Shown here: one piece after another, positions 1,105-12,408 of the stretch
How the letters are laid out: every line of letters starts with the position of its first letter
How positions within the stretch are numbered: the stretch's first letter is position 1
Assembly (NCBI GenBank): GCA_963845755.1
Contig: CAWJTV010000019.1
Location: 352,001-416,000 of the forward strand
Reading direction: 5' to 3'
From: an uncultured Planctomycetota bacterium
Lineage (GTDB): Bacteria > Planctomycetota > Planctomycetia > Isosphaerales > Isosphaeraceae
DNA: 64,000 nt
Notes under the pieces: model-generated
The model's database searches: none
Seen by the model: only the letters and a program-made list of their open reading frames with translations
Told to the model about the DNA's origin: nothing
Translations under genes and position numbers: made by a program

Positions 1105-1350
1105 TCAGGTCGTGGGCAGCACGTCATACCAGTCGTGGACGCCCGGTTGGAGTATTCGTTCAGCAAGGGTCTCGAGCTGATCGATGTCCTGGGTTGCCTC
1201 GATCGCGGCGCGGGTCGTGGCATCGGGCGCGCCGAACCGCCTGGCCCCCTGACGAAGCAGGATTCGCCGCGCCTCGTTGAGACGGCCCTCCAGCCGGCCT
1301 TGCTCAAATATCCACTGATACATCTTCGAACCCACTAAGCTCGAACCCAT
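1105..1350 (-). CDS. Stand-alone Rpn C-terminal (DUF4351-like, RpnS-like) small protein, cassette 3
   Basis: YQWIFEQGRLEGRLNEARRILLRQGARRFG...AIEA..DIDQLE..RIL...HDW is homologous to the C-terminus of 1835..2694. Confidence 0.75.
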   Translation of the reverse strand: MGSSLVGSKMYQWIFEQGRLEGRLNEARRILLRQGARRFGAPDATTRAAIEATQDIDQLETLAERILQPGVHDWYDVLPTT

Positions 1351-1465
1351 GTTCACCGCCCTTCCAGCACGGCAGACGAGCCGTCACTTCGTCCGCAAGT
1401 CGCAGACCCATGAGCCGGTACGTCGCGGTCCCGAGCCTGGCCGCTCGCGGCGGCGGCTTCGTGGC

Positions 1466-1831
1466 TCACAGAGTGCCCAGGAGGCCATTCCAGTCGTGGA
1501 GACTCAGGTCGACGATCCGGTCGCTCAGCCGCTCCAGGCGATCGAGATCGCCGATCGCCTCGATGGCGGCCCGGGTTGTCTCGTCGGGAAGCCCGACGCG
1601 AATCCCTCCCAGTCGGAGGAGGAGCCGCTGCGCCTCGCGGACGCGGCCTTCATTGCGCCACTCGATGAGTCCCTCCCCCCGGCCTTCCTACAAGATGAGC
1701 TGATACATCGCCGATTCACGCATGTTGTACACTCCGTCCACTAACTGTTTGGCAAACATCGGCTGATAACGCAGCGCCATCAGAAAGAGCGTGGCGATCC
1801 AGAGCTTCTCCGCCCGCGGCACCGGCTTCAT
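1466..1831 (-). pseudogene. Rpn C-terminal cassette 2 with in-frame TAG at 1688-1690
   Basis: Manual translation: MKPVPRAEKLWIATLFLMALRY...DGVYNMRESAMYQLIL*EGRGEG...EGRVREAQRLLLRLG...HDWNGLLGTL. Confidence 0.75.
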
Positions 1832-1834
1832 GGT

Positions 1835-2694
1835 TCACAGAATGCCCAGGAGGCCATTCCAGTCGTGGATGCTAGTATCCAGCACCCGTTTGGTCAGTTG
1901 CTCCAGTCGTTCGACATCGCGGATGGCCTCGATGGTGCCCCGAGTCGCTTCGTCCGGCTCTCTGAAGCGGGCCTCACCCAGGATCAAGAGCATCCGCTGC
2001 GCCTCGCCGACACGACCCTCGTTGCGGCCCTCGCTCAGGGTGGCCTGATAGGTAGTGGATTCCCGCATATTCTGCACTCCTTCCAACAACTTCCAGGCGA
2101 ACGCTTGCTCGTAACGCAACCCCATCAGCCAGTAAGCCGCGGTCCAGAACTTACCTGCCCGCGGCGGCGGCTCAGCGTTGATCCGCTCGGCCATCCGCCG
2201 CACCAACTCGGGCAGCGACTCCTCCACGACGTTGGTCAGCGGGGCCAGGGGCACCAGGTTGACCCCGCCGGCCAGGTACGCCTCGGGGTCCTCCTGCCAG
2301 AGCCGCACCACGCGGTAATTATACCGATTCGTCTGCCAGCCGTCGGGGAGCTGCCGCTCATAAGTCCCGGTCAGGCCGGGCGAGTTGGCCTCCTTGCACA
2401 GGAGCACCAGGACGGTGAGCACCGGCAGGTTGTGGCGATAATCGAGGGCGACTTGACGGTACCAGAGCGTCCGGGCCAGGCCGGTGTCATGGTAGGAGTG
2501 GGGCTCGATATTGATCAGGTAGGGCTCGGGGCCATCGACGGCAGCACCTTGTCGGCGGAGGCGGTCAGGGTGGTGATGTCCGAGTCGATGACGGTGACCG
2601 GCCCGAGGGGGCCGATGGCGAACCGTTCCAGCCAGGCGTCGGGGCCCTCCCAGACCAGTTCCTTGGCCGAGACGTCGAGGCGGTTGAAATCCAT
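1835..2694 (-). CDS. Rpn/YhgA-like (PD-(D/E)XK-related) protein with DUF4351-like C-terminus, frameshift near 2545
   Basis: Joining ORFs 2515..2772 and 1835..2806 gives MDFNRLDVSAKEL...SADKVL..DGPEPYLINIEPHS...YRVVRLWQED..LVPLAPL...MRESTTYQ..EGRNEGR. Confidence 0.7.
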
Positions 2695-2820: not shown

Positions 2821-3222
2821 TCAGGACCTGCTCGACTGACGAACAACCGCAGGTCGCTTCGCCGCGCGCGCCGTTGCTATCGGACCAGACATCCCCGCTA
2901 CCTCGAACAGGCCCGATGGGTCATGACGAAACACCTGGATCAGCCTCAAGGCCGCCTGCGACGGCTTCCGATGGCCCTGTTCCCAGCTCTGAACCGTCTT
3001 GGGCGACACGTTGAGCAGTCGAGCGAAGACGGCCTGGGACATGCCGCTCGCGAGTCGGATCTTCACCAGTTCCTCGGCGCCGATCTCCGGCGGCCGGTCG
3101 GGCAATTCGAGGGTCGTGGTTTTCAGGATGATCTCGCCTTTCGCGTGGCGGATCGCTTCTTCCAGGCCCTTGCGGATCTGATCCGCGACCGGGAGCCGTT
3201 TCCGCTGGTCCTTCATATTCAT
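2821..3222 (-). CDS. higA: HigA-type XRE HTH antitoxin (start may be 3216)
   Basis: IRLASGMSQAVFARLLNVSPKTVQSWEQG, directly downstream of a RelE-like toxin. Confidence 0.85.
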   Translation of the reverse strand: MNMKDQRKRLPVADQIRKGLEEAIRHAKGEIILKTTTLELPDRPPEIGAEELVKIRLASGMSQAVFARLLNVSPKTVQSWEQGHRKPSQAALRLIQVFRHDPSGLFEVAGMSGPIATARAAKRPAVVRQSSRS

Positions 3223-3576
3223 TCACACCTTTCTCGCTCGGCGAGTCCGATCTTTGAGTATCTGGACGAGCTGACGGTAGAGTTTCTTGTCGTCCGCCGA
3301 GAGATCGTCCTTCTGATCCTTCCCGTAAACTGTGATGAGATGGATCTGGTCCACCTCCTCGAGGTGCAAGTAGATCACCCTGACCCCGCCCCGTTTTCCC
3401 TGACTCCGTCTCGGGTCGGCGACCCGCATCTTCCGGAGACCCCCGCAACCTTGCACAACCGCGCCCGCATCGGGATCATTCAGCAACTCTCGCTGCAAGT
3501 CGGAAAGCGTTTCGTCGGACAAGTGCACCTTGACCCATTCGGTGAACTCTCTCGTTTCGACGAACGTCTTATTCAT
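3223..3576 (-). CDS. higB: HigB-2/RelE-family toxin
   Basis: FVETREF...GCGGLRKMR...GKRGGVRVIY...LITVYGK, toxin-first gene order. Confidence 0.85.
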   Translation of the reverse strand: MNKTFVETREFTEWVKVHLSDETLSDLQRELLNDPDAGAVVQGCGGLRKMRVADPRRSQGKRGGVRVIYLHLEEVDQIHLITVYGKDQKDDLSADDKKLYRQLVQILKDRTRRARKV

Positions 3577-3905: not shown

Positions 3906-6197
3906 CTACTCGGGTAACACTTCGATCGTGATCTCTTGAAACTGAAGGACCGAGTCACCCCAGACAACGAAGGCGATTCCCCCTGAGCCGTACCACCCGG
4001 AGGCGTCCATGTACTCAGCGACCTTCTTGCCGTTCACCGAAGTGGAAATCCGATTCCTGATGGCTGTGATATCCAGTGTGTTCCATACATCGGCAGCGAC
4101 AGGAACCGATTCGGCCCGCTTCTCCCAGGCAATGCCGTGCCAGTAGGGATGATTACTCATTTTCGTGATACTCCCAACAGGTGTCTGCTCCCTGTCGATG
4201 GTCGGCCACAATCCACGACGGACCAAATAGCCGTTTCTGTTATCGCCCACGGGAGAGCGGCGAATCTCAATGTTCCCGCCTCCTCTTTCTTGGTGATCGT
4301 CCTCACGGAATTTGATGCGGAGATGAAAGTTCGCGAAGTCTTGCCGTTGAGCGACGAGGACGGCCGCTTTCCCATTCCCTTTGCCCTCCAGTACACCACC
4401 TACCATCCTCCATTCACCGCCGTTGTCGTATGCTATATCCCAGCCATCCAAATCCTTACCGTTGAACAGCGATACAAAGCGCCCCTGATCGCCTTTCTCA
4501 GGGGCCCGCGCGACGGGAGGCTCGATTCGGACGTTCGTCCCCTTGTTGCCTCCCTCTCGGACGGTCATATCATTTCCGGATTCCTCAGTTCTACCCTGCT
4601 TCACTTTCAACCCTTGTCCGCCGGGAAGCGGTGTGATCTCCGTGGGAGCCCCGCCTCCCGGCGGCTGGACCTTGACCGTTCCGTTGTCAACGATGACTTC
4701 TGACTGATCCGGGGCGTTCTTCAGGACGATGTCTCCATCCTTCGTCTTGATTCTGATGACGACTGCCCATGCGACGAAGAACGCCGTGATCAGGATTCCC
4801 GCGGCCACCGCCGGCCACATCCACGAGGACGATCGTCGACCCGCTCCGTCCACCGATGGATTGGTCTTGGCTGACGCAGATTCCGTCTGCCGCAGATCGA
4901 TCAAGCTGTCCCACATTGGTGCTTCGTGCGGCGTCCCCGTTGTCTTCTTGGATGTGGTCAAGGTCGCAGGTGGCAAGTTCTCCGCAGGCTCAGCCGGCAT
5001 CGATTCCGCCCTCGCTGCAACCGATTGTCCTGGTTGAGAGACCTCCGGCTTCGATCCCACGGCCCCAAGGGTCCCCGCTTTGAAGAACGGCTTGAGCGCC
5101 TGCGCCACCCCTTTGGGCTCCTGGAACCGCCGCTCAGGCTCCTTCGCCATCATCTTACTCACTACGGCCGCCAGCTCCGCAGGCACTTCCGGCCGCGCCA
5201 GGTTCAGTGGTGTCGCCTCCATCGAGTGGTGCGCCTGGAAAAGTTCGTAGAGGCTGTCGGCATGGAATGGTGGGCCGCCGGTCAGGAGGTAGTAGAAGGT
5301 GCAGCCCAGGCTGTAGATGTCCGCCCGGATATCGGCCTTGCGGGCATTGCTGATCTGTTCGGGTGCGATGTAGTCGGGCGTGCCCAGCATCTGTCCATCG
5401 TTTGTCAGGCTCCGATCCGTCGAGCCCTCGCTCCGGATCTTGGCCAGGCCGAAGTCGAGCACCTTGATCAGGGCGCGCTTGCCATCGCGAGTGAGCATCA
5501 AGTTGCTGGGCTTGATGTCGCGGTGGACCATGCTGTGCTCGTGTGCGTGCTGCAAGCCCAGCGCCGCCTGACCGATGAACGCGCAGGCGTTGGCCACGGG
5601 CAATGGCCCCTTGGCCTGGACCATCCGCGCCAGGTCGAGGCCCTCGACGTACTCCATCGCCAGCACGAGGCTCTCGCCCATGCGAATAGCTGCGTAGGCG
5701 GTGACCACGTGGGGATGGTGCAGCTTGGCGGCGTTGCGGATCTCGGCGAGGAAGCGGTCCAGGACGCCGCGACGATTGATCAGGTGGCTGCTGACGACCT
5801 TGAGGACCTCCTTCCGCCCCATGATCTTGTTCTCGGCCAGGTAGACGACGCCCATGCCGCCGCGGCCCAGTTCGCGGAGGACTTCGTAATCGGGGTGGTC
5901 GGCCAGGCCGGGTGGCAGCGTGCAGGCCGCGGGTGGGACCAACGAACGCGGCCCGGCGTCGAGCATCGAGAGTCCCGCCATCGAGGAGACGACCGGCGCG
6001 GGCGAATCGGGCCGGCCCTGGGCGCCGCGGAGGCGACCAAGGAAGCTATCCGAGGAGAGTTCGGCAACGCGGCGACGGCAGTCCGGGCACGACTCCAGAT
6101 GCTGGTTGACCGATTCGGCCGAGGCATCATCGAGCTTGCCCATCCCGTAGGAGGAGAGCGTCTGGTCGGTCGGGTGCAGGGCTTGCGGGGCGTTCAT
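3906..6197 (-). CDS. Membrane Ser/Thr kinase with N-terminal ZAS zinc finger and C-terminal DUF1080 domain (kinase 1)
   Basis: HLESCPDC, GRGGMGVV, HRDIKPSN, DFG, GTPDYIAPE, TM helix WPAVAAGILITAFFVAWAVVI, FVSLFNGKDLDGW. Start MNAPQ chosen by paralog alignment. Confidence 0.9.
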   Translation of the reverse strand: MNAPQALHPTDQTLSSYGMGKLDDASAESVNQHLESCPDCRRRVAELSSDSFLGRLRGAQGRPDSPAPVVSSMAGLSMLDAGPRSLVPPAACTLPPGLADHPDYEVLRELGRGGMGVVYLAENKIMGRKEVLKVVSSHLINRRGVLDRFLAEIRNAAKLHHPHVVTAYAAIRMGESLVLAMEYVEGLDLARMVQAKGPLPVANACAFIGQAALGLQHAHEHSMVHRDIKPSNLMLTRDGKRALIKVLDFGLAKIRSEGSTDRSLTNDGQMLGTPDYIAPEQISNARKADIRADIYSLGCTFYYLLTGGPPFHADSLYELFQAHHSMEATPLNLARPEVPAELAAVVSKMMAKEPERRFQEPKGVAQALKPFFKAGTLGAVGSKPEVSQPGQSVAARAESMPAEPAENLPPATLTTSKKTTGTPHEAPMWDSLIDLRQTESASAKTNPSVDGAGRRSSSWMWPAVAAGILITAFFVAWAVVIRIKTKDGDIVLKNAPDQSEVIVDNGTVKVQPPGGGAPTEITPLPGGQGLKVKQGRTEESGNDMTVREGGNKGTNVRIEPPVARAPEKGDQGRFVSLFNGKDLDGWDIAYDNGGEWRMVGGVLEGKGNGKAAVLVAQRQDFANFHLRIKFREDDHQERGGGNIEIRRSPVGDNRNGYLVRRGLWPTIDREQTPVGSITKMSNHPYWHGIAWEKRAESVPVAADVWNTLDITAIRNRISTSVNGKKVAEYMDASGWYGSGGIAFVVWGDSVLQFQEITIEVLPE

Positions 6198-6262
6198 GGG
6201 ATCGGTCTCCGACTTCGAGTCCGGATCGCGTTCGACGGGTCGATCACTCACACAAGAGAGAA

Positions 6263-6294
6263 AGGCGGTTAAGACGTGGGACCTGCCGCGAAAA
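6263..6294 (-). promoter_or_regulatory. Conserved kinase-upstream motif copy A (candidate ECF promoter)
   Basis: Minus strand TTTTCGCGGCAGGTCCCACGTCTTAACCGCCT, within a ~110-bp block shared with 11911-12028. Confidence 0.5.
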
Positions 6295-6403
6295 TGCGAA
6301 AAACTTTCGAACGATCGCCAGATTCTCGCCGTATCCTCTTGAAGCGGCTCGACTTCACCCTGATCTCGTTGTTTCGGGTTGGCCCCGATTCCGGAGCCGA
6401 TGG

Positions 6404-6718
6404 CTACCACAATCCGATCCGGCGCCGCACCGCGTCTTCGACGATGGTTAGTTGATCCGGCGGGAGGCTCCCCAGTTTGCGGACCAGTTTGGCGTGCGGG
6501 ACCGTGAGCATGTTCTGCGCATCGAAAACCCCGGCCGTAAGGAACCGGGACCGGACGGCGACCTCGAAATTCGACTCGCGGGCGCTGGTCGTGTGAGCCA
6601 CCAGCGTGACCAGCGCATCCTGGGGCCCGGCCGGAACGCTCAAGACCACGCAGGGACGGACTTTTCCGGCCATCCCCAGATCGACGATCCAGACCTCGCC
6701 GCGGTTAGGAGTAGGCAC
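6404..6718 (-). CDS. mazF: PemK/MazF-family toxin
   Basis: RGEVWIVDLG..GKVRPCVVLS...DAQNMLTV...LVRKLGSL. Confidence 0.85.
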   Translation of the reverse strand: MPTPNRGEVWIVDLGMAGKVRPCVVLSVPAGPQDALVTLVAHTTSARESNFEVAVRSRFLTAGVFDAQNMLTVPHAKLVRKLGSLPPDQLTIVEDAVRRRIGLW

Positions 6719-7012: not shown

Positions 7013-9331
7013 CTATTCCTGGACGTTCATCGCGTAAATGAAGAGAGTTCCCGACTTCACGAACAATCCGATCGCCCCCGTGTAATCACTGGCCGGAGGA
7101 GTCTTGCAGGCCAATTCCCACTTCTCCTGCTTGATGGCGACTCGCGCGATGTTCTCGCGGTGGATTTCGAACCGGATCAGGAACGACTTCTCGGGAGCGA
7201 AATGCTCCGGTTTCGTGTCGGACTCGGGAGGTTGGAAGTCGAGCGAGGGGTGCCCGACCTGGATCTTGCCCCCCTCATCCTTCACGCGTACCGTGATCGC
7301 CCGCCAACCGTTTGGACCGCGATGAGCCCGGAGCGCCAGGAATGCTTCCGTTCCCTGGGTCGCGGTCAGGGTGAGCGTGAGCGTGCGCGCGCTTGTAACT
7401 CTCGCGCTTCGTGAGCAGCAGGTTCCCGTTCGGCCCCGCCGAGAGGACCAGCGCCTTTTCGTTGATCTCGATGAAATCGGGGTCGCCGAACTGCCACGCC
7501 TTGAGTTTGTCCGCCGTCAGGGTCGGCCAGATGCCCCCGCGGGGTTGGCCACCGTCGGGATTGGCCAGCCGCTCGACCCCGGCGTGGACGCGCAACTGCC
7601 GGATGTCCAGCGCTGGCTTCACGACGGTTTTCTCGAGGTCGAGCAGACCATTCCCTACGGAAGCCTTCATGATGTTGAGGGAGGGCTTGGAAGTGTTGAG
7701 TTCTGGTACGGCCGCGGAAGTCGTGGCTTTCGGGACGTCCGCGATCGGTACGACGCCTGCCTCACCGAGCCGACTTTCCTGAGCGATCCGCGCCGGGGGC
7801 ACGTACCGACCGGAGTGAGCGTCATCGCTCGGTTTCTTGGCACCGCCTCGATCCTCAACTTCCGATCGCGTTGCGCCGACAAGCTCCGGTGGATCGTTAT
7901 TGCGGCTTTGCCGCCCCGGGGCGAAGCCGAGCGTCCAGGTCATGGCGAGGCCGAGCAGCAACGCACCACCCGTAATGCACGGCCACAGCCAGGGCAAGCC
8001 TTTCGCCCCTCGCTGGATCATCGCGGACTGCTCCCCGGAGAGGCCCTCCTTCCGCCCGAGGTCGATCATGTCCAGGGCCTGTCCGGGATGCGCGGGCTTC
8101 GCCTGCTTCTCAACCGCCGGCGCGGCGGTTGTCGCTACCTTCGGAGGAAGTGCGGCCGCTGGACTCGCGACGGCTCGCTCGGCCGGGGACGCTTCGTCCT
8201 TCGTCTCCCCCGGCTTGAAGAACGACTTGATCGCCTGAGCCACCTCGCCGGGAGTCTGGAACCGACTCGCCGGCTCCTTGGCCATCATCTTGGCCACCAG
8301 GGCCGCCAGCTCCACCGGCACCTCCGGCCGCGCGAGGTTCAACGGCGTCGCGGTCATCGAGTGATGCGCCGTGAGATCTCGGAGAGGCTGATGCCCGAGA
8401 ACGGCGGGCGCGCCGGTCAGGAGGCAATACAAGGTGCAACCCAGGCTGTAGATGTCGGCGCGGATATCGGCCCCCTGAGCGTTGAGGCTCTGTTCGGGTG
8501 CCAGATAATCGGGAGTGCCCAGCATCTGCCCCTCGCGCGTCAGTCCACCCTCGCTCAGTGCCTCCTGCGTCGCCTTGGCCAGGCCGAAATCGAGGATCTT
8601 GATGACCGACCCAGTTCCCTGGCGAACGAGTATGAGGTTGCGGGGCTTGATATCCCGATGGACCATCCCGCGCTCGTGGGCGTGCTGGAGTCCCAGGGCT
8701 GCCTGGTAGACGAAGTTGCAGGCGTGGGCGACCGGGAGCGGCCCCTGGGTCGCGACCAGCCTGGCCAGGTCGAGGCCCTCGACGTACTCCATGACCAGCA
8801 CGATCCGGTCGCCCGCCCGCATCGCCGTGTAGGCGGTGACGAGGTTGGGGTGGTGGAGCTGGGCGGCGTTCTGGATCTCGCGGAGGAACCGGTCCGAAAC
8901 GCTACGACGATCCATCAGGTCCCGTCTGACGACCTTGAGCACCTCCTTGCGCCCCATGAGCGTGTTCTGTGCCAGGTAGACGACGCCCATCCCGTCACGG
9001 CCCAGCTCGCTGAGGACCTGGTAGCTGGGATGATCGGCCAGGCCCGGCGGGAGCGAATCGGCCGGCGGTTCGGCCGTATTGGTGGGGCCACCTGCCATGG
9101 ACGAGATCCCCGAGCACGACGAGTCGAGCGAAGGCGGCGAATCGGGCCGATTCGGGGCGTTACGAACCCGGACAGCAGAACGGTCTGAGGAGAGTTCGGC
9201 GACCCGTCGGCGACAATCCGAGCACACCTTCAGATGACTCCGGACCGACTCGGCCGAGCGCCGTCGAGGTTGCCCAGGCCGTGGGCGTGCAGCGTCTGGT
9301 CGGTCGGGTGCAGGGGTGGCGGTGCGTCCAT
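7013..9331 (-). CDS. ZAS-Ser/Thr kinase 2 with TM helix and DUF1080-like C-terminus (frameshifts near 9260, 8400, 7385)
   Basis: N-terminus MDAPPPLHPTDQTL matches the paralogs. HLKVCSDC, HRDIKPRN, DFG, GTPDYLAPE. C-terminus continues into ORF 7013..7285. Confidence 0.8.
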
Positions 9332-9386
9332 CGATCGGGCTTCCACTCCGGTTCAAACGGTCACTCGCCTGGCCAGTCGACGGCCG

Positions 9387-11910
9387 TCAGTCGGGCTTTG
9401 TCGTCTTGCTCGAAGGCATGGACAGAGAACTGCTCTTTGGGCTCTGTTTCAGCTTTGGCTTATTTGCACGACGATAGGCGTCGGGGTTAAGCGACAACAT
9501 CCTCTGCTTGTCCTTGATCTGCGAGAAGGCTTTCTTGCAAAACTCGGATGGTCCGATGAATAGAGGGGCTTTCCTCTGCTCCTTCAGGGCTTTGATCGCA
9601 TTCGTGACCTCCGTGTCCTTCTTCAGTTCCTCGTACTCCTGTGAGACTTTGTCGAAAATCGGTTTCAGCTTGTTGCTCTCCTCATAGAACTCCGCCCTCC
9701 TCGTCAGGAAGATCTCGCTGAGCCTGTCAATCCTGGCCTGACCTGGCCGACGCTTCACGGCGATTGCGAATTCCCGATTGGTGTTTCTCAGATTCGCGTC
9801 CGCAGCTTGTCGCTCCTGCTGCAGAGCCTGGCGGGCCGGCGCAGTCGCGGGATTACTCGGCAGGTTCCTGAGCTGCAAGTCCAGGTCATTGATGTAGGAT
9901 TGTAGGTTGATCCGTAGATCGTCGAGGCCCTGGACAAAGTTCTCGATCTGCACGGCCTGGGTCAGATCACTCCAGGCCCCTTCCGTCGCCTTCCAGTAGG
10001 GGACGAGCCTATCGTATCCGTCCCGGACCTGGTATTCCGTCGCGATGACGTAGAAGCGCCCTTCTTGCTTCAGGCCGTGTTTGGCAAGCAGGATGGCCTC
10101 GGGGGAGGAATCTTCGGACGATGGCTTGTCCTCGAGTTTTGCCTTCGAATCGAGAGTTTGGATCGGAGTAGGAACGGGTTTGGAGTCCGCGGGCTGCTCC
10201 TTCGCGGTCAGATTCGTACCGTTCTGAAGGCCCTCGTCGACGCGGCGCGTGTTCTCCGAATCGAAGCTCGCGACGACTTTCCGATCATGGCTCGCTGGTT
10301 TCGCCTTAGGTGACTCTGGGTCCGAGGGAATCGGATCCCACCGGTCCTTATCTCCGGCGCGGGGCGTCTCGGGCGGCCGTTCTCGCAGTGCCCGGATGGC
10401 CGGTCTTCCGAGTCGAGGTGGCCAGGGATGGAAGCGAATCGCTCTCGCCCTGATTCGTCTTCGAGTCGATGCTCAACTTCCAACCCACGGCGATCCCGAT
10501 GACCAGTAGGGCAGCGGCGGCCAGGGGCCACAACCAGGCCGGAACGCCTCGGCGTTCGCGCAGGGCGCGGACTTCCGCCGACAGGTCGGCTTGCGGATTG
10601 ATCTCGACGAGCGTGTCCCAGGCGGAATCGGGCGGCGTTGACGGTTTCGCCACCACCACTGCGGGGTCCAGTGATACGACCCTCGTCGTCGGCGCCGGAG
10701 CCTGATCCGCCCCACGCGATTGCGGGACGGGTGGCGGCGCATCGCCCCGGGAGAGCTCCGGCTTCGATGGCTGAGACGCCGCGGTCTCTTTCTTGAGGAA
10801 TGGGATCAGCGCCTGCGCCAGTCCCTTGGGTGTCTGGAACCGACGCTCCGGCTCCTTGGCCAGCATCGTGGCCACGAGGACCGCCAGCTCCATCGGCACG
10901 TCAGGACGCACGAGGTTCAATAGCGGCGCGTCCATCGAGTGGTGTGCCTGGTAAATCTCGTAGAGCGTCGTGGCCTGGAACGGTGGGCGACCCGTGAGCA
11001 ATTCGTAGAACGTACAGCCCAGGCTGTAGATGTCGGCGCGGATATCGGCCTGCCGGGCGTCGTTGATCTGCTCCGGGGCGATGTACTCGGGCGTACCCAG
11101 CCACTGGCCCGCGGCCGTGAGCGAACCGTCCGCGGTCCGTTCGCGTTTCACCTTGGCCAGGCCGAAGTCGAGGATCTTGACCACCGCGCGATTCCCGAAG
11201 CGGACGAGCATGAGGTTGCTGGGCTTGATATCGCGGTGGACCATGCCCAGCTCATGGGCGTACTGGAGCCCGAGCGCCGCCTGGTGGATGAAATAGCATG
11301 CGTGGACCACCGACAGCGGCCCCTTGGTCTTGACCGTCCTGGCCAGGTCGAGGCCCTCGACATACTCCATGGCCAGCACGAGGTTTTCGTCGAATCGGAG
11401 TGCCGAGTAGGCCGTGACGATGTTGGGGTGGTGTAGACGGGCGGCGTTGCGGATCTCGGCGAGGAAGCGGTCCATGACGCCAGGGCGGTTGATGAGGTGG
11501 CTGCTGACGACCTTCAACACCTCCTGGCGACCCATCAGCTTGTTCTGAGCGAGATAAACGACTCCCATGCCGCCGCGGCCCAGTTCTCGAAGGATTTCAT
11601 AGTCGGGGTGATTGAGCAGGCCCGGAGGTAACGTGTTGGCCGATTCCGGAATCGGTGAGCAGGCCCCGCCCGCGTTCGTCGCCGGGCCGTTGGTCGCCGA
11701 GTTGACCGGAGTGGGCGAGCCGGAGTTTTCCTGGGCGTCGCGAGGCCGACTCAGGAAGCTATCGGATGAGAGCTCGGCGACCCGGTGCCGGCAATCCGGG
11801 CATGTCTCCAGGTGTTTGTTGACAGCATCGGCCAGGAGGTCTTCGAGCTTGCCCAGGCCGTAAGCGTACAGCGTCGGGCCGGTCGGATGGTTCGCTTGCG
11901 TTGCGTTCAT
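9387..11910 (-). CDS. ZAS-Ser/Thr kinase 3 with TM helix and coiled-coil-like C-terminus (frameshift near 10370)
   Basis: HLETCPDC, GRGGMGVV, HRDIKPSN, DFG, TM helix WPLAAAALLVIGIAVGW. Helical ORF 9387..9953 appears to be its shifted C-terminus. Confidence 0.8.
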
Positions 11911-11975
11911 GAGATCGGTCTCCAACCTCGAGTCCGGATCGTGATTGATGGATCGATGACTCACACAAGATAGGA

Positions 11976-12007
11976 AGGCGGTCAAAACGCGGGACCTGCC
12001 GCGAAAA
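11976..12007 (-). promoter_or_regulatory. Conserved kinase-upstream motif copy B
   Basis: Minus strand TTTTCGCGGCAGGTCCCGCGTTTTGACCGCCT. Confidence 0.5.
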
Positions 12008-12408
12008 CAGAAATTCTTTTCGAAGGATGTTCCTGATCGTCTGGTGACAGGCCAAGCCATCTGCCATAAGTGTTTTCCAAGGCGGTTGATCAGCCGGCTA
12101 TGGAATTCGTGGTCCCTCGGCCGACGGCTCGGGTATTCGGAACCGCGAACCTGACCCCCCGGTCAAGCCTGAGTTGACCCACGGCTCGTTCACAGGCACT
12201 CCCACACCGTACTACTGCCACGCGAGAAGCACGCATGGGTCGATGATTCGCTGCGAGCGGTTCTCTTCTCGGCGGCGGATCTCCCCGGTAAGATTACGAA
12301 GCACCTATACACGACACTGCGGAATGGACTTTCTCTGGACGTGGACTTCAGTCACACTCGCATCCGTACGGTGCGAGGACTGTTCTTGCCAGGTCGTCTC
12401 GCCAAGCG

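Follow-up and report, generated by a model that had tools for sequence, protein, structure and literature searches.

Rpn genes constitute a recently recognised and very widespread type of toxin-antitoxin defence gene. In the parts of the study of Zhong et al. (2023; PMC10400941) on which we draw here, they are defined as COG5464 and recorded in 34 bacterial phyla, and the small protein RpnS is described as carrying 4-amino-acid (4-aa) repeats, which start 8-20 residues after its initiating Met and vary in number among close relatives. The same parts state that RpnS can be a separate gene annotated as DUF4351, and that a second RpnS copy lies downstream of rpnE (ypaA) and, in some strains, of rpnC (rpnCSs). 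According to these parts, the downstream RpnSs copies derive from the upstream gene and can disappear, either through deletion or when the N-terminal domain becomes fused to the downstream copy, and Escherichia coli RpnESs is made. The legends of the supplementary information also name RpnFSs and RpnP1Ss, as well as a Parabacteroides tandem array of whole rpn genes (Fig. S1B), and refer to the solved RpnAS dimer (7TH0). The hypervariability of Rpn tails and the origin of the downstream copies are questions raised by Zhong et al. themselves. A search for later work on Rpn, with little coverage of subscription journals, returned nothing beyond the 2023 paper and a commentary. In the present study we analysed a stretch of 64,000 nt (the window; positions 352,001 to 416,000 of contig CAWJTV010000019.1, assembly GCA_963845755.1) from an uncultured planctomycete of the Isosphaeraceae, in which a gene that appears to be distantly related to rpn is followed by two diverged copies of its own C-terminal tail. 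A preliminary description, made from the letters alone, had taken these copies for a candidate library of antitoxin or immunity cassettes. The core of that idea is an already published phenomenon for E. coli, since the separate downstream RpnS, its derivation and its loss by fusion are all present in PMC10400941.

The observation of a gene with two diverged tail copies behind it was confirmed. All features of the array lie on the minus strand (coordinates are those of the window):

1835..2694, minus strand: main Rpn-like gene (RpnL-like), from the open reading frames (ORFs); ~286 aa once a 1-nt gap at ~2540 is allowed for
2275..2694 (boundaries approximate), minus strand: N-terminal PD-(D/E)XK-like domain with ADKV...IEPHS (D...ExH), from the fold model of a relative and hhalign
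2538..2541, minus strand: apparent 1-nt deletion splitting the main gene, probably an assembly error or strain polymorphism
1835..2176, minus strand: cassette 1, which is the main gene's C-terminal tail (PPPRAGKF as far as the stop), from ORFs, alignment and relatives
1835..2082, minus strand: internal start 1 and RpnS-like 77-aa ORF (AAGGAG 2082-2077, ATG 2068-2066)
1466..1834, minus strand: unit 2, a full spare cassette in the frame of the main gene, from ORF reading and alignment
1105..1465, minus strand: unit 3, a spare cassette with its first ~30 codons out of frame with the remainder, from ORFs, alignment and a short-read contig
1105..1350, minus strand: free-standing RpnS-like ORF of unit 3, 81 aa (ATG 1350, stop 1107-1105; predicted gene P0121)
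1825..1869, minus strand: conserved junction copy 1 (cassette 1 end, stop, unit 2 start), 42/45 match to copy 2
1456..1500, minus strand: conserved junction copy 2 (unit 2 end, stop, unit 3 start), 42/45 match to copy 1

The main gene runs from the ATG at 2694 to the stop at 1837-1835 and, as assembled, is read in two frames, MDFNRLDV...ADKVL from the ATG and then VDGPEPYLINIEPHS...GIL to the stop. Its internal start, which falls exactly where the preliminary description had placed it, consists of AAGGAG, an 8-nt spacer and the ATG at 2068, and opens the 77-aa ORF MRESTTYQ...GIL. Unit 2 begins 3 nt after the stop of the main gene, in the same frame, and is a second copy of its last ~120 codons; its signals are GGAG (1735-1732), an 8-nt spacer and an ATG (1723-1721), followed by an in-frame TAG at codon 12 of the small ORF (1690-1688). 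Unit 3 directly follows the stop of unit 2 and opens with KPPPRAARLG (first codons KPPPRAARLGTATYRLMGL). Its frame changes between about 1385 and 1360, a purine-rich tract precedes the ATG at 1350, and from this ATG on the 81-aa ORF is intact. The TAG in unit 2 and the degradation of unit 3 upstream of its internal start had both been noted before and were found again.

Each junction is composed of the last ~33 coding nt of one cassette, its stop and ~12 nt of the next unit. The two copies match at 42/45 positions (1869-1825 vs 1500-1456), an identity equalled in just 24 of 5000 shuffles. A repeat search recovered a 269-nt pair (72% identity, spacing 369) and a 58-nt family of three copies (spacing 369 and 345), and in the MAFFT alignment the identities were 69% for cassette 1 and unit 2, 62% for units 2 and 3, and 57% for cassette 1 and unit 3. 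Tandem Repeats Finder detected no array at the locus, because the units are too diverged. The repeat search, the alignment and the junction match bear out the earlier claim of two tail-derived units with near-identical junctions; the start signals at 1723 and 1350, like that at 2068, are those given in the preliminary description.

Comparison with relatives indicated which parts of the tail are retained. The internal Met is invariant in all 12 intact relatives examined, and a Shine-Dalgarno-like (SD-like) core stands before the internal start at 18 of 25 sites. The Gly codon at position -4 (n=23) is GGA in 14 cases, GGG in 8, GGT in 1 and GGC in 0, as against 23% GGA and 41% GGC among the Gly codons elsewhere in those ORFs; the nominal p of 1e-4 is overstated, since the sequences are related. 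At the level of sequence this is an internal start of the RpnS type, and its translation is predicted. The 4-aa repeats (EGRx, EGLI/EGLx, KGIE) begin ~12 residues after the Met and are present in one to about ten copies in relatives, and when the two species of the genus are compared, orthologous cassettes show length steps of 12, 24 and 36 nt within them. PF14261 (DUF4351) matches the unit 3 ORF over model positions 2-47 (22 bits, E 1.6e-4, below the 25-bit cut-off) and 7 of the 12 intact relatives at E<=1 (best 2.7e-6). In the full-length fold model of a relative, the tail forms helices at residues 227-257, 262-269, 274-283 and 292-296, with predicted local distance difference test (pLDDT) scores of 83-91; the RpnS fold (7TH0) consists of a long helix and a three-helix bundle, with dimerisation via the long helix. 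The 77-aa protein modelled poorly as a monomer (pLDDT 69), and a Foldseek search with this model gave no match at E<=0.001 and nothing like 7TH0. A scan of the locus for promoters and terminators returned 0 promoter-like sites and 1 terminator-like site, which is on the wrong strand and within chance expectation.

The search for homologues of the main gene returned 564 proteins at E<=1e-5, and the best matches listed are mostly 280-300 aa long. Many are named 'predicted transposase YdaD' (JGI), a name which we take to stand for COG5464, and one is named 'Rpn family recombination-promoting nuclease/putative transposase' (NCBI); many of the homologues with 65-72% identity have a precomputed PF14261 match. 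When 13 planctomycete proteins were compared with E. coli RpnA/B/C/E by hhalign (E 3.8e-4, probability 36%), 224 collinear columns were aligned, with HD..FK, the catalytic D and ExQ in register and with the region of the internal start aligned too. In the fold model of an intact relative with 76% identity (pLDDT 75), the best matches of the N-terminal domain (N-domain), although weak, were all of the PD-(D/E)XK type, i.e. NucS 2vld (Z 5.9, root-mean-square deviation 3.1, 102 residues), McrC (4.8), SfsA (4.6) and MspJI (4.4). The neighbours of the protein in a language-model protein atlas include DUF2887 and Transposase_31 clusters (score 0.96).

Since the names and PF14261 matches, the hhalign comparison, the fold matches and the atlas neighbours agree, the main gene appears to encode a distant Rpn/COG5464-type protein, one for which no curated Rpn model of the N-domain or whole protein (PF04754, TIGR01784) reaches its cut-off on the window gene or on 12 relatives. 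The earlier designation of the gene as Rpn-like is upheld by the homologue names, PF14261 and the collinear alignment with its motifs in register. The NCBIfam models gave noise alone on pieces of the window, and PDB sequence searches with profiles of the whole protein and of the tail found nothing relevant. The putative catalytic motif had been read as INIEPHS (ExH), and our reading agrees; ExH is also present in the intact relatives L013 and L027 and in a copy on contig C11 of the window's own genome, and most relatives have ExQ.

As assembled, the main gene has the look of a pseudogene, which is most likely due to an assembly error. Short-read contigs from soil metagenomes are 100% identical to the window over 1191-1427, 2022-2256, 2108-2258 and 2323-2486. 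In run X4, all three contigs bridging 2538-2541 have one extra base relative to the window, and one of them (99% identical to it) differs in a single other letter over 113 nt. A contig of run X1 that ends at the site has a loose end which reads with the same extra base, and two X2 contigs break precisely at 2540/2541. The extra base at ~2540 gives back ADKVLRVDGPEPY, the reading of the relatives; with it the translation through the site becomes ADKVLRVDG, and the intact main protein would have 286 aa, the same length as its nearest database relatives. In the window's own genome (G000), rpoB (on C34) lies in two frames and rpoC runs in frames A, B, A (G000:C34:79366-83015, 567489-571586), and indel errors are therefore common in this assembly. 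The 1-nt frameshift is thus probably an error, because the bridging short-read contigs carry the base and because rpoB and rpoC are frame-split. The ratio of nonsynonymous to synonymous substitution rates (dN/dS) of the N-domain against two same-genus loci (0.08-0.23) fits a live main gene.

The same 1-nt gap is present in an orthologous locus of the same genus. An old shared pseudogene was considered and dropped in view of the bridging contigs with the extra base, the split essential genes and the dN/dS of the N-domain. A programmed frameshift at ~2540 was also rejected: no slippery motif is present, the short-read contigs simply have the base, and essential genes are frame-split too. In that same-genus ortholog (L015:3603-3747, minus strand) 25 codons including the catalytic D are flanked by a +1 insertion, at a site containing GATC, and by a -1 deletion, at the site of the window's frameshift; the long frame thereby stays open, with the motif scrambled. 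These paired indels may reflect systematic errors of sequencing at the two sites. Three paralogs in the window's genome (G000:C11:304302-305202, C26:45305-46072 and C27:48909-49640) look frameshifted, the first of them twice, and may likewise be assembly errors; those on C33, C3, C34 and C46 are intact (~285-307 aa). Any apparent frameshift or pseudogene in this genome, and probably also in that of its sister species (G001), needs checking before it is interpreted.

The frame break in unit 3 lies inside 1191-1427 and is exactly reproduced by a short-read contig; it is also found in two loci of the sister species. The junction of units 2 and 3 is likewise present in two loci of the same-genus genome. 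None of the metagenome contigs covers 1768-1959 or 1448-1511, and no independent sequence covers either the junction of cassette 1 and unit 2 (~1835) or the TAG, whose position is occupied by CAG in the sister species.

We searched for cassette 1 in 61 related genomes and obtained matches in 23. At least two head-to-tail cassettes occur at 15 places in 7 of the 61 genomes (our own reading of the table and maps): one place in G000, four in G001, four in G012, one each in G015, G017 and G033, and three in G007. The arrays in the related genomes hold one to three extra cassettes, i.e. 2-4 cassettes in total. Among 16 extra cassettes examined, 10 have a Met at the position equivalent to the start, or shortly before it, and stay open as far as the usual end; another has the Met and a late stop, and five are fragments or have no start. 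Some of the loci concerned come from assemblies which possibly share the indel problem. These recurrent arrays go beyond the E. coli precedent, and the cassette maps agree with the earlier expectation that array length and composition would differ among relatives.

Turnover is visible in the sister species, in which both orthologous loci are without cassette 1 and the N-domain is fused straight to the unit-2 cassette. This arrangement in a same-genus relative likewise extends the E. coli precedent, and it makes visible the tail exchange that the preliminary description had proposed under the name of swappable tails. In the sister species, the whole locus is present as two copies ~24 kb apart and with the same flanks (L014 at G001:C10 ~434 kb, L015 at ~410 kb). 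Their repeat numbers are not the same, and unit 3 of one copy contains an additional unit of ~312 nt. At G015:C179, in another genus and next to the same downstream FHA gene, the array consists of a main tail and a small ORF of the unit-3 type, and this main tail is unit-2-like before the repeats (dN 0.11 vs 0.27 to cassette 1) and cassette-1-like after them. In one metagenome contig a 5' part of cassette 1 is joined to a 3' part of unit 2, with different repeats between them. The main gene of the window is also a mosaic: over the core (residues 52-140) it shares 80-88% identity with ExH-type relatives and 61-78% with L020 (G015:C7, ExQ-type), and over the linker and tail (residues 141-287) 76-83% with L020 and 52-60% with L013.

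Cassette 1 is closest to the main-gene tails of other genera (84% to L019 over 75 tree columns; 76% to L020 over the S segment and 78.9% over the whole cassette). We computed a tree of the small-protein region with 36 of 49 rows, leaving out 13 distant or partial rows from nine loci. In this tree, cassette 1 groups with the main tails of three other genera (87/88), unit 2 with the main tails of the sister species (100/98), and unit 3 with extra cassettes of G001 and G015 (100/99); the last group is nested in a clade formed by main tails that belong to other paralogs, among them the C11 paralog of the window's genome (96/93; also 98/95). This suggests that unit 3 stems from another cassette lineage, kept together with its start across genera, a further feature beyond what is known from E. 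coli. Foreign origin of unit 3 falls short of being shown, because a single clade comprising every cassette of the locus passed the approximately unbiased (AU) test (p 0.063, for a group picked after the tree had been seen). The full-length partners that the spare units might have had in their own genome did not turn up: a search for each gave none close, the best match being the C11 paralog (48% to unit 2, 56% over 62 aa to unit 3), and none of the other paralogs of this genome has extra cassettes.

Two further arrangements were noted in the relatives. In G001:C19 (L013:2450-3330, plus strand), three RpnS-like domains follow an intact Rpn-like gene in a single 361-aa open frame without stops, which may be either a fusion of several small-protein domains or three ORFs with internal starts. 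In G007, free-standing small ORFs (L025:1537-1893, minus strand; L024:1664-1918, plus strand) contain very long runs of 4-aa repeats, with KGIE/KGIQ about nine times and also QEGF/QKGF/QEGR.

The locus shares with E. coli rpnE-ypaA and rpnC-rpnCSs (i) an N-domain that appears to be of the PD-(D/E)XK type, (ii) a tail with an internal SD-ATG, (iii) 4-aa repeats of variable number 8-20 residues past the Met, (iv) a tail ORF directly after the rpn-like gene, as expected of an RpnSs-type copy, and (v) the disappearance of copies, through deletion or because the N-domain has become joined to the downstream copy. In K-12, the 61-codon ypaA starts 12 nt after rpnE and corresponds to the small protein only, whereas the planctomycete repeat starts ~36 codons before the internal start, at PxPRA, and comprises the whole tail. 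Two downstream copies are present in the window and up to three in relatives, in contrast to the one described for E. coli in the parts of the 2023 study used here. Further differences are the planctomycete host, ExH for ExQ, a similarity that is detectable by profile comparison only, and a distal copy which the tree places apart from its own upstream tail (AU p 0.063). The 81-aa ORF of unit 3 resembles free-standing DUF4351 small proteins in its match to positions 2-47 of PF14261; it differs from them in its sub-cut-off score and in lying inside a vestigial full cassette rather than forming a clean small gene. As in the Parabacteroides arrays there is tandem direct duplication at an rpn locus, with whole genes repeated there and only the last ~120 codons in the window.

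The analogy with orphan modules of polymorphic toxins, drawn in the preliminary description, proved loose. In polymorphic toxins (CdiA-CT/CdiI, Rhs), an orphan downstream module consists of a toxin domain and its own immunity gene. The planctomycete array resembles such orphans in having diverged copies of the 3' end downstream, with a conserved junction motif, which can recombine into the main gene. In contrast, its cassette would be a regulatory or antitoxin tail, and the nuclease domain lies outside it: the ~120-aa helical cassettes contain no nuclease domain, there is no extra ORF between the units, and it is this lack of a toxin domain that makes the likeness loose.

We next consider whether the spare units are functional. 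The small ORF of unit 2 ends after 11 codons, and because the TAG cuts it, unit 2 is not an intact antitoxin in the window's genome. By its sequence it is a spare tail, inactive here, which serves as the main tail in the sister species. The small ORF of unit 3 is intact in the window and in G015, and the 18-nt block GGAAGGGCGGTGAACATG, which comprises its SD, spacer and ATG, is invariant in three loci of two genera, with the codons that follow it varying. Six small-protein relatives of the unit 3 ORF were found, of which three, from metagenomes, share its MGSS start. In all likelihood unit 3 still is a free-standing small gene of the RpnS type with its own start, retained in two genera. A heterodimer model of the S proteins of cassette 1 and unit 3 scored 0.75, compared with 0.01 for the best of 3 controls; a mark of 0.75 is reached by 116 of 157 solved complexes and by 2 of 215 mismatched pairs. 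Three runs agreed in 100% of contacts, the pLDDT of the partner was >=83, and the interface runs along the long repeat-bearing helix. As the RpnAS dimer (7TH0) has already been solved, this pass speaks for likeness and not for binding.

The downstream units gave dN/dS values of 0.34-1.33, i.e. far weaker constraint than on the N-domain (0.08-0.23). For unit 3 (0.63 between genera), the values for comparison were 0.22-0.30 in main tails and 0.30 in the neighbouring FHA gene. A contrast in dN/dS upstream and downstream of the internal ATGs, suggested earlier as a check, did not emerge: there was no clear difference, with few sites available. The description of the units as orphan RpnS-like antitoxins may apply to unit 3, whose ORF is intact and whose start is kept; it does not hold for unit 2, and constraint on unit 3 is weak. 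The function as an antitoxin or immunity library went beyond what the locus itself displays.

We consider it probable that the locus is a distant Rpn toxin gene with an intragenic antitoxin, that its extra tail cassettes were made by recombination, and that the frameshift in the main gene is an error. By analogy with the E. coli proteins, the long product is predicted to be a PD-(D/E)XK-like nuclease with a DUF4351-type helical tail, the internal SD-ATG at 2068 would direct synthesis of the 77-aa RpnS-like protein that keeps the nuclease silent, and this small protein would pair with the tail of the long product through the long helix on which the 4-aa repeats lie. The system may act against phage, as judged from the E. 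coli work. The comparison of loci suggests that the downstream units are tail copies duplicated, deleted and hybridised by recombination between cassettes, for which the PxPRA and HDWNGLLG-stop junctions and the 12-nt repeats are candidate crossover points. The phenomenon is probably the same as in rpnE-ypaA and rpnC-rpnCSs of E. coli, with unit 3 presumably persisting as a free small gene, and unit 2 as a spare that would be disabled in the window and active as a tail in the sister species.

Several results weigh against this reading. As to the family, the hhalign probability is just 36% and, against RpnE alone, 9%; the fold matches are weak (Foldseek E >= 0.015, the best N-domain matches being 0.066-0.5; Z <= 6); at E<=1, Pfam recognised no family in the N-domain of either the window pieces or 12 intact relatives, in a scan in which E. 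coli RpnE scored 293 bits; TIGR01784 was found on 3 of the 12 relatives only below its 52-bit cut-off (best E 0.0014); and the third catalytic residue is H (IEPHS, ExH) and not Q. As to the cassettes, DUF4351 is sub-cut-off (unit 3, 22 vs 25 bits) or absent (cassette 1) in the window, unit 2 carries its TAG, and both this TAG and the junction of cassette 1 and unit 2 rest on one error-prone assembly. Moreover, the dN/dS of unit 3, at 1.33 and 0.62 in comparison with the same-genus loci and 0.63 in comparison with the other genus, cannot be told from 1 (rough two-proportion test, one-sided p about 0.07).

In another explanation, which we regard as rather unlikely, the gene would be Rpn-like and both units would be inert by-products, i.e. 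neutral relics of unequal crossing-over or tandem duplication with no role as antitoxin or reserve. The TAG in unit 2 and the frame break in unit 3 fit it, as do the values of 0.34-1.33 for the units set against 0.08-0.23 for the N-domain, the 0.63 of unit 3 across genera set against 0.22-0.30 for main tails, the lack of a clear dN/dS difference between the two sides of the internal ATGs and the 6 of 16 extra cassettes in relatives that are fragmentary, startless or stopped just before the end; GC-rich DNA, in addition, easily keeps open frames. Neutral decay accounts less well for the unit 3 ATG and its 18-nt block, which are invariant over two genera at a dS of ~0.4-0.6 while the next codons vary, for the MGSS start shared by 3 of the 6 unit 3 small-protein relatives, or for the 10 of 16 extras that are intact small ORFs from a start-equivalent Met. 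E. coli RpnESs, moreover, is made (PMC10400941, in the parts cited above). A misassembled array, or a gene unrelated to Rpn with an ordinary helical tail, is very improbable: indel errors in the assembly, the two intervals (1768-1959 and 1448-1511) without independent sequence and the curated Rpn models below their cut-offs would suit it, but the units are only 57-69% identical and so are not collapsed or duplicated reads, arrays with the same junctions occur in three other assemblies, and several independent lines point to Rpn/COG5464.

A stronger role for the cassettes can also be envisaged, in which the array would be kept as a reserve for swapping of tail and antitoxin by recombination, re-setting the specificity of pairing under phage pressure, much as silent-cassette or orphan-module systems do. 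Tail exchange between the sister species, the hybrid cassettes in a metagenome contig and at G015:C179, the mosaic main gene (core ExH-type-like, linker and tail L020-like), junctions more conserved than interiors, units in one frame with single stops between them and the position of unit 3 in another cassette clade (96/93, 98/95) are all consistent with such a reserve. However, ordinary unequal crossing-over without selection gives the same patterns, the spare cassettes are decaying (TAG, frame break), the AU test does not reject a single origin of the locus cassettes (p 0.063; group named post hoc), no switching within a population was seen, and no dedicated recombinase or signal is present; we therefore judge a maintained reserve to be decidedly unlikely. 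A fuller scenario of switching, in which a working reserve would let recombination at the junctions or 12-nt repeats repeatedly replace the nuclease tail together with its built-in antitoxin, and in which the old tail would be pushed downstream and persist awhile as the free antitoxin of the previous specificity, is as a whole unlikely. If it were true, the array would be both a record of and a substrate for specificity switching in a toxin-antitoxin defence gene, switching that could possibly be driven by the Rpn nuclease itself. On the preferred reading of a distant Rpn gene with recombination-made tail cassettes, the planctomycete loci, with their 2-4-cassette arrays, the deletion and fusion in the sister species, the hybrid cassettes and a distal gene kept though the main tail differs, are natural intermediates for testing whether tail exchange re-sets toxin-antitoxin pairing.

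Analysis of the neighbourhood of the array (a RelE/HTH pair, an FHA protein and Ser/Thr kinases) revealed no recognisable defence island. Directly upstream of the Rpn-like gene (2821-3576, minus strand), a RelE-like toxin (PF06296, 3576-3223) is followed by an HTH_3/Xre-type protein (3222-2821), and the two genes are a probable second toxin-antitoxin pair. The FHA-domain protein is encoded just downstream of the array, and three Ser/Thr protein kinases are encoded nearby:

137-1042, 3906-6410, 7275-9356 and 10348-12060, minus strand: FHA gene and three Ser/Thr kinase genes

One of these kinases has a 3-keto-disaccharide hydrolase (DUF1080-type) domain, and in two other genomes, too, the FHA gene is found in synteny with the Rpn locus.

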